Source: Candidatus Collierbacteria bacterium RIFOXYD1_FULL_40_9
GTDB taxonomy: Bacteria > Patescibacteriota > Microgenomatia > UBA1400 > MFAQ01
Direction: 5' to 3'
Length of the DNA stretch: 28,602 nt
NCBI GenBank assembly: GCA_001776275.1
Contig: MFAQ01000041.1
Location: forward strand, 54,057 to 82,658
Part shown: positions 19,291-19,395 of the stretch, in pieces
Position numbering within the stretch: the first letter of the stretch is position 1
Layout of the letters: each line of letters opens with the position of its first letter
Notes under the pieces: model-generated
Databases searched by the model: none
Seen by the model: the letters and a program-made list of their open reading frames with translations, nothing else
What the model was told of the DNA's origin: nothing
Translations under genes and position numbers: made by a program

Positions 19291-19395
19291 CCGGCAGGCG
19301 GTGGCGAACCGCGAGACACGAAAGTGTTGAGCGGTGAGCCAATAAGTTAGTAATGGTCCACGAAATAAGTTCGAATTTCGTTATAACAGACAACA
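19291..19395 (+). repeat. ~104-nt repeat, copy 2
   Basis: Reverse complement of 1492-1595 at about 89% identity by manual alignment. Confidence 0.92.

Follow-up and report, generated by a model that had tools for sequence, protein, structure and literature searches.

Two copies of a 40-nt hairpin, built from short helices separated by tandem G-A pairs, lie in opposite orientations in the window, by which we mean the whole 28,602-nt stretch of DNA analyzed here. What kind of element is this hairpin, and what might recognize it? A sequence-only reading of the same DNA had described the hairpin as conserved, had not recognized its family and had proposed a strand-specific recognition element, with the RT and HTH of the locus as candidate partners. 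The question touches a wider one. Large serine recombinases (LSRs) owe their value as genome-engineering tools to the belief that two short DNA sites suffice for them. The LSR family of ultra-small CPR bacteria to which this locus leads departs from that picture in its tRNA targets, an attP within the recombinase gene, an inverted attP as leader and conserved strand-specific hairpins around the site. Whichever way the hairpin acts, it represents a structured motif, as yet uncatalogued, whose more than 100 natural variants suffice for a covariance model.

RESULTS

Sequence and predicted fold of the hairpin

The two copies are as follows.

1545 to 1584, minus strand: GA hairpin copy 1, within module A of the recombinase leader E
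19302 to 19341, plus strand: GA hairpin copy 2, within module A' at the right end of the island

Copy 2 reads TGGC-GA-ACCGC-GA-GACAC-GAAA-GTGTT-GA-GCGGT-GA-GCCA. Copy 1 differs from it at two positions, a GACA loop in place of GAAA and a T-to-A change beside the inner GA loop. Both copies have helices of 4, 5 and 5 (or 4) bp, two symmetric 2x2 GA/GA loops and a GAAA or GACA cap, and the predicted fold of each consists of exactly these three helices with the two loops between them. The architecture and the differences between copies that had been read from the letters alone thus agree with both the sequence comparison and the folding. As RNA, the predicted folding energies are -24.4 kcal/mol for copy 2 (z = -7.3) and -21.9 kcal/mol for copy 1 (z = -6.4), values matched by 0 of 200 shuffles of each copy. 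The complementary TC/TC strand folds at -17.1 kcal/mol in both cases, so that the GA strand is stronger by 5 to 7 kcal/mol. As DNA, the advantage of the GA strand is small, at 1.2 to 1.6 kcal/mol (-11.4 for copy 2, -11.0 for copy 1 and -9.8 kcal/mol for the complement).

A covariance search of the window with Rfam 15 returned only two tRNAs at the gathering score, and at E values of up to 10 the two hairpin regions gave chance matches only, of 13 to 18 bits. The family that had gone unrecognized therefore has no match in Rfam. The loops resemble the tandem sheared G-A pairs of other RNAs (rRNA internal loops and kink-turn-related motifs) in the 5'-GA/3'-AG loop, the G-C flanks and conservation as a recognition surface. 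The hairpin differs from these motifs in having no Rfam match, in placing two loops 5 bp apart in one hairpin and in its symmetric, bulge-free 2x2 loops, which lack the 3-nt bulge followed by tandem G-A pairs of a kink-turn.

The hairpin lies in a module at the ends of an integrated island

Element E (minus strand of window positions 1340 to 1660) was compared by BLAST with its own genome and with relatives. The repeat exceeds the hairpin, extending over ~108 nt at 89% identity (1488-1595, minus, versus 19291-19399, plus), and E proved to be modular: module A (E66-173) holds the hairpin and is contiguous with module B (E165-270). The features of the two ends are as follows.

1 to 1320, minus strand: first 440 codons of the large serine recombinase; its 3' end is beyond the left edge of the window, past an assembly gap
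1391 to 1496, minus strand: module B, with hp5 at 1464-1480 and hp6 at 1428-1461
1488 to 1595, minus strand: module A in leader E, with the core CAACA at 1492-1496
19291 to 19395, plus strand: module A', the element-side arm of attR, comprising hairpin, linker, motif, palindrome and core
19367 to 19380, plus strand: T-loop-like motif GTTCGAAT in module A'
19380 to 19387, plus strand: palindrome GTTATAAC in module A'
19391 to 19395, plus strand: crossover core CAACA, the end of module A'

On the plus strand the order is tRNA-Gln(ttg), B', recombinase (minus), E (minus; B then A), RT and HTH, copper/thiol cargo, A' and host genes. B', on the plus strand, is 97.5% identical to B and begins at the last bases of tRNA-Gln, and the core CAACA is common to E, the left end and the right end. 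This order of modules gives a left end of tRNA-core-B and a right end of A-core-host, in direct orientation. Many relatives have empty sites, in which tRNA-Gln ends in ...GGCAACA and a terminator follows immediately; the flank of the empty site in one of them (G206) is the sequence found downstream of A' in an occupied genome (G031). In a genome of the same genus (G003), tRNA-Gln and the terminator are followed by a weak homolog (29% identity) of the flanking ORF at 19430-20380. The comparison with empty sites identifies the inserted unit as a 19.6-kb island that ends at 19395. By these alignments the island extends from the tRNA-Gln immediately outside the left edge of the window as far as 19395, copy 2 marks its right end and attR is R-A'-CAACA-host.

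Two features expected of an LSR attachment site are found here: the empty-site comparison places module A' at the boundary between inserted and host DNA, and the cognate LSR is encoded beside the site, a linkage that is conserved across families. The hairpin is thus a conserved helix within module A, whose ~108 nt directly adjoin the crossover core of LSR islands at the 3' ends of tRNA-Gln and tRNA-Glu genes. Within module A, the T-loop-like motif GTTCGAAYT is nearly invariant across the class, even where the islands target different tRNAs. It lies 16 nt from the core in A, compared with 12 nt for the T-loop in the tRNA, and this difference resembles the known offset between attP and attB half-sites. 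We infer that GTTCGAAT more likely acts in duplex form, imitating the part of the target that the recombinase reads, the tRNA T-loop region. The hairpin itself lies 50 to 90 nt from the crossover core, which puts it outside the minimal LSR site of ~40 to 50 bp; sites of that length are all that large serine recombinases need, according to PMC12286644.

The element is not a dispersed repeat, as the 810-kb, 46-contig assembly of its own genome (83% complete) contains three copies of the module, all at att-type positions. Runs of N left of the window (G000 C41:54009-54055) and on a second contig (C12:7462-7491, equivalent to L003:1472-1501) break the 3' end of the recombinase and the hairpin of the third copy, respectively, so that the third hairpin is unreadable. 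These runs are probably assembly gaps caused by repeats.

The attP lies within the recombinase gene, and its inverted copy forms the leader

The recombinase carries the Pfam domains Resolvase, Recombinase and Zn_ribbon_recom. Its frame (513 to 560 aa) runs through B', across the attP core and into the antisense strand of the tRNA, and the antisense of hp6 encodes a conserved ...WEKPFASLRAWAGARA... of the protein. In a reconstruction of the junction, the frame continues for 14 codons beyond the core and stops 8 to 9 nt short of the reverse-complemented hairpin. The recombinase gene therefore contains attP, and E duplicates A and the final ~35 codons in inverted orientation. Where the frame crosses the core (window 1-1320, minus strand, with G000 C41:53876-54056 to its left; L054:5102-6784), its C-terminal tail is encoded by antisense tRNA in the integrated state and is a short conserved CYNE[IV]RTYF..Y-stop in the junction form; integration thus alters the end of the protein.

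The remaining parts of the leader, all on the minus strand, are listed below.

1374 to 1650: structured core of leader E, which repeats the element's attP in inverted orientation between the strands of a long-range helix
1374 to 1391: P1, 3' strand
1597 to 1612: motif X
1613 to 1632: hp1, with a UGCG loop
1633 to 1650: P1, 5' strand
1657 to 1667: conserved TATAGG-type box, 7-12 nt upstream of P1

Leader E sits between a conserved upstream box and the start of the recombinase. It is ~290 nt long for copy 1, and within it the entire attP (A-core-B) is repeated in inverted orientation and closed off, here by an 18-bp long-range helix. Across genomes this helix, P1, has 18 to 23 bp and encloses A-core-B (~240 nt); its inner part shows covariation from class to class, and the 21-bp P1 of one family has an entirely different sequence. 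The hairpin hp1 also covaries and keeps its C(UGCG)G loop, which recurs in three other hairpins (four in total). hp5, just right of the core, varies strongly between elements, but its sequence in E is identical to that at the left end of the same element in 7 of 8 cases. Because the leader is an inverted copy of attP, the 5' leader of the mRNA is complementary to ~100 to 190 nt of its own 3' end. The TATAGG-type box is a candidate promoter element; a scan of the GA strand in the leader and right-end regions found no promoter of the sigma-70 consensus type. A mini-frame, ATGGTTAAATGA (M-V-K-stop; window positions 1321-1345, minus strand), is conserved in both classes, Gln and Glu, and leaves almost no gap before the start of the recombinase; it could permit translational coupling with the recombinase.

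Conservation and covariation of the hairpin

A search with the exact lower-stem pattern and a variable apex retrieved 34 genome stretches and 95 metagenome stretches, which gave 122 distinct public contexts with the lower helices and both GA/GA loops unchanged. The conservation proposed earlier is thereby confirmed. Most of the contexts are from Candidatus Collierbacteria and some from Paceibacterota and Berkelbacteria; viral contigs (IMG/VR) gave zero matches to the exact pattern. By type, 54 of the 122 are right ends, with R upstream and host sequence downstream, 32 are leaders with B, 15 are R-A-core-B junctions and 14 are leaders without B, many of these clipped by contig ends. In Collierbacteria, neither the two lower helices nor either GA/GA loop varies, save for single changes in a few copies of the right-end type. 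Covariation is seen in the apical stem (ACAC/GTGT, GGCA/TGCC and GGCC/GGCC, with CCCGCC/GGCGGG in one Berkelbacteria contig), and RNAalifold recovered the hairpin with covarying apical pairs. Among the apical loops, GCGAAGC and C(GNA)G triloops, namely C(GAA)G, C(GGA)G, C(GTA)G and C(GCA)G, are very frequent. Copies with mismatches made up 1 of 11 of the E type and 5 of 15 of the R type, numbers too small to separate the two types.

In distant families, the basal helix TGGC/GCCA is replaced by TAGC/GCTA, TTGC/GCAA or AGGC/GCCT with GA/GA retained. The outer GA/GA loop is present in 22 to 23 of 29 aligned hairpins from other families; loss of this register in homologs would have spoken against a recognition element, and for the outer loop it is kept. 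The inner loop has been lost in some lineages (e.g., GCCCC-GCGAAGC-GGGGC), and in others the periodic design is rebuilt from other helices, as in GC-GA-GCC-GA-GC-GGA-GC-GA-GGC-GA-GC. As the GA/GA register is held on one strand through these changes in helix sequence, an intrastrand fold is favored over a symmetric double-stranded site. In the alignment with distant homologs, 88% of cells are paired, compared with 23 to 49% in slid controls, and 13 of 18 pairs are changed on both sides, a level reached by 0 of 500 shuffles; this alignment was fitted to the model, so that the pair counts lean towards structure. As the lower stem is invariant in Collierbacteria, its covariation rests on the distant, model-aligned homologs. 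Modules A and A' are identical or one mismatch apart in several elements, and gene conversion between such inverted copies, which are often identical within one element, could explain some of the conservation. Of all helices in this uncatalogued structured module, the GA hairpin is the most conserved.

A conserved region upstream of the right-end copy

The right-end module is preceded by a further structured region.

19029 to 19290, plus strand: region R, ~260 nt of conserved, covarying hairpins upstream of A'
19122 to 19146, plus strand: second TGGCGA...GAGCCA clamp in R, with a variable insert

R precedes A' in nearly all right-end copies and has no match in Rfam. Its covariation is strong (e.g., TCAGATAG/CTATCTGA versus CCCACTGA/TCAGTGGG). 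The second TGGCGA...GAGCCA clamp is present in 25 of 29 copies of R, with an insert of 7 to 61 nt, and a second conserved clamp fits a motif that is recognized. An open frame of 82 codons (19071-19319, minus strand) overlaps R and the 5' half of the hairpin; as the sequence is conserved in the form of hairpins with indels and the frame has no Pfam match, it is probably not a gene. We also considered R-A' as an antisense C-terminal extension of the recombinase in the excised form and rejected it, as a stop closes the frame after 14 codons beyond the core and stop codons abound in the remainder.

Distribution and rearranged forms of the islands

The order tRNA, B', recombinase, E, variable cargo and inverted A' recurs in G009, G030, G031, G028 and on a second contig of the element's own genome. 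Relatives that target tRNA-Glu share this layout, with recombinases that are 57 to 60% identical, and with these variants included the layout occurs in more than 10 genomes. With a covariance model of A, 19 of 151 genomes sampled from the class gave a match to the module. Distant families carry it 140 to 170 nt upstream of recombinases that are 50 to 59% identical, with an inverted partner 1.4 to 6 kb away. The recombinase is the only constant gene of the islands. Cargo varies, no conserved Rep, relaxase, primase or second protein was found among the islands, and homologs of the RT and HTH were seen in this island only, among all loci searched. The ORFs of the window include no tyrosine recombinase and no HUH transposase.

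Several loci carry rearranged forms. Direct R-A-core-B junctions were observed, with a hybrid junction in L199. The repeated and hybrid A-core-B junctions (L199:3346-5130; L034 [G009], 6129-12415) indicate tandem accretion, by the look of their sequences, through repeated insertion at the tRNA half-site. They imply that a left end already in place can be targeted anew and hence that the recombinase needs mainly the tRNA half of its target. In two metagenome contigs (L158:3521-5516 and L168:555-2826), R-A-core-B-P1' lies right before the recombinase and replaces the usual 5' part of the leader, and this arrangement looks like the isomer expected from inversion of the recombinase segment between the two inverted attP copies. 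An apparent joint between a tRNA and an inverted A in L223 proved to be a deletion derivative. A search of metagenome contigs for circular (excised) forms by terminal overlap found none, and a search of the literature on serine-recombinase islands of CPR or Microgenomates returned nothing relevant.

DISCUSSION

The hairpin is probably a strand-specific folded element that is recognized by some factor, a view that draws on its pattern of sequence change. This part of the sequence-only reading is plausible, as the GA/GA register is kept on one strand while the helices change. Its proposed partners fare less well: the RT and HTH are both cargo seen in this island only, and are unlikely to be the factor.

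The islands share several features with elements such as Bxb1, phiC31, A118 and TnpX. An LSR with Resolvase, Recombinase and Zn-ribbon domains is encoded next to its site, the boundaries are hybrid sites that share a short core, and empty sites can be identified. They differ from these elements in targeting the 3' end of a tRNA, with recognition apparently mainly of the tRNA half, and in having attP inside the recombinase frame with more than 100 nt of conserved hairpins flanking the core. A complete inverted attP forms the leader of the gene, and the hairpin falls outside the range of any minimal LSR site. Integron attC sites and the attP of CTX phage are also strand-specific, imperfect hairpins on mobile DNA with conserved unpaired bases, which mark cassette ends, and CTX phage likewise has two inverted att copies. 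However, in those systems tyrosine recombinases exchange one strand of folded single-stranded DNA (ssDNA), whereas the islands have a serine enzyme only and the crossover lies outside the hairpin. We rejected an integron attC on two grounds, as no tyrosine recombinase is present among the ORFs of the window and the crossover core lies at least 50 nt beyond the hairpin. A CTX-like folded single-stranded attP used by a serine recombinase was rejected by reasoning, since a double-strand exchange with a stem-loop leaves hairpin-capped chromosome ends.

We tentatively favor a function as RNA, to which we would assign slightly less than an even prospect. In this reading, the hairpin would work as a folded single strand on the GA-bearing strand, which in the recombinase leader is the sense one. 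Its two tandem sheared G-A motifs, with the G-C pairs beside them, would present a surface of specific sequence and shape for a protein or a tertiary contact, while the apical stem would need only to pair. An RNA domain present in the recombinase leader and in the R-A' transcript could then tie expression or stability of the recombinase to the state of the element. The closing helix, the UNCG-type and GNRA loops, the position in a leader and the excess of G-U pairs lean towards RNA, as far as sequence features can tell. G-U pairs outnumber A-C pairs on the GA strand (18 versus 2 in A2; in E, 25 versus 12, on the opposite strand), and counted over the whole of R and E the preference for the GA strand is mild only. 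Folding of the whole-region alignments by strand, a weak test, gave -118 versus -107 kcal/mol for R and -110 versus -103 kcal/mol for E.

It is also possible, though unlikely in our view, that the hairpin is a signal in ssDNA. The hairpin and the R/A cluster would fold in the single strand as an ssi/sso-like site of priming or initiation, after DNA uptake or during rolling-circle or lagging-strand synthesis of an excised circle, and with the inverted copy in the leader each strand would have one copy able to function. Tandem sheared G-A pairs in a pyrimidine-GA-purine context are also stable in DNA, and the element is strand specific and present in both orientations on a mobile element. Apical C(GAA)G, C(GGA)G, C(GTA)G and C(GCA)G loops are very common, and GCGAAGC occurs. 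Hairpins of the GCGAAGC type with C(GNA)G loops are extra-stable DNA mini-hairpins of single-strand priming sites that are much weaker as RNA; exceptionally stable in DNA only, they are found at the G4 and ssiA priming sites and in the N4 hairpin promoters (PMC13037366; see also PMC3201870). The islands thus resemble the G4 origin, ssiA and the N4 promoters in their C(GNA)G and GCGAAGC-type apices, sheared G-A pairs and strand specificity. They differ in that no primase or Rep context is present and in that Collierbacteria copies also have GNRA-type or U-rich loops. Indeed, no Rep, relaxase or primase is conserved in islands whose cargo varies and whose recombinase alone is constant, and serine recombinases act on double-stranded DNA. 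The C(UGCG)G loops and a closing helix of 18 to 23 bp around 240 nt suit an RNA domain better, and the advantage of the GA strand in DNA folding is just 1.2 to 1.6 kcal/mol.

Readings other than RNA and ssDNA are, taken jointly, somewhat unlikely to hold the answer. One is that the opposite strand is functional and that the reverse-complemented hairpin serves as a 3' stem-loop, a stabilizer or terminator, of the recombinase mRNA, with which the leader copy would pair. This fits the reconstructed junction, where the stop codon falls just before the reverse-complemented hairpin, the similar CYNE[IV]RTYF..Y-stop tail of the Glu class (sequences read by eye) and the complementarity of the leader to ~190 nt of the mRNA 3' end. 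We consider it improbable, since UC/UC mismatches have no known stabilizing role, the fold is 5 to 7 kcal/mol weaker, a U-tract is absent after the reverse-complemented hairpin and GA specifically is kept across helix changes, which points to the GA strand. An accessory site in double-stranded DNA has a similarly low probability. Here an imperfect palindrome would be bound as a duplex by the recombinase or a directionality factor, in the manner of an arm-type site beside attP, as the fixed distance to the crossover in attP-type and attR-type sites and the invariant lower stem in Collierbacteria would allow. However, compensatory changes in all three helices and the one-strand asymmetry of GA/GA are unexpected for a symmetric duplex, the islands encode no conserved second protein and the hairpin lies beyond the ~40- to 50-bp LSR site given in PMC12286644.

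A decidedly improbable variant is that the RNA of the leader or of R-A', with its exact copy of attP, gates or guides the LSR, the GA hairpin being its protein handle. Such an RNA would be a directionality factor, or a sensor of the integrated and excised states that pairs with the 3' end of the recombinase mRNA or with att DNA. We know of no RNA cofactor of serine recombinases.

It is very improbable that the ~100-nt module is a gene-less miniature element, a hairpin transposon like the IS200/IS605 "peel and paste" elements that inserts alone near tRNA genes. In its favor, the module contains hairpins as well as the GTTATAAC palindrome, and some copies are solitary or truncated. Against this, the element's own genome has three copies only, all in att-type positions, and empty sites show that the whole island, and not the module, is the inserted unit. 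Right-end copies are always fused to R or the cargo end and leader copies to B and the recombinase gene, and no HUH transposase was found in the window. Elements of the REP, MITE and IS200-IS605 types were rejected for the same three att-position copies in the 810-kb assembly (83% complete) and the island as inserted unit. Finally, a role as substrate or template of the RT, as part of a retron or DGR, is extremely improbable: copy 1 starts ~20 nt past the RT stop codon, but homologs of the RT and HTH occur in this island alone among the loci searched, and the differences between copies are not adenine specific, include an indel and fall in no target ORF. A DGR was rejected for these mixed differences and the indel, and a retron because the RT is not conserved next to other copies of the hairpin.

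Should the recombinase or a host factor recognize the hairpin as a handle, two things would come to light: a new layer of control over integration and excision, and a route by which cargo enters CPR genomes, for example the copper-resistance genes and the retron of this island. Should it instead be a signal in ssDNA, it would reveal an unrecognized single-stranded stage in the life of the islands.

Two truncated copies of the leader (L008:866-1127 in G023 and L061:6515-6627 in G030) break within a few bases of the apex of the hairpin, which hints that the palindrome is a hotspot for rearrangement.
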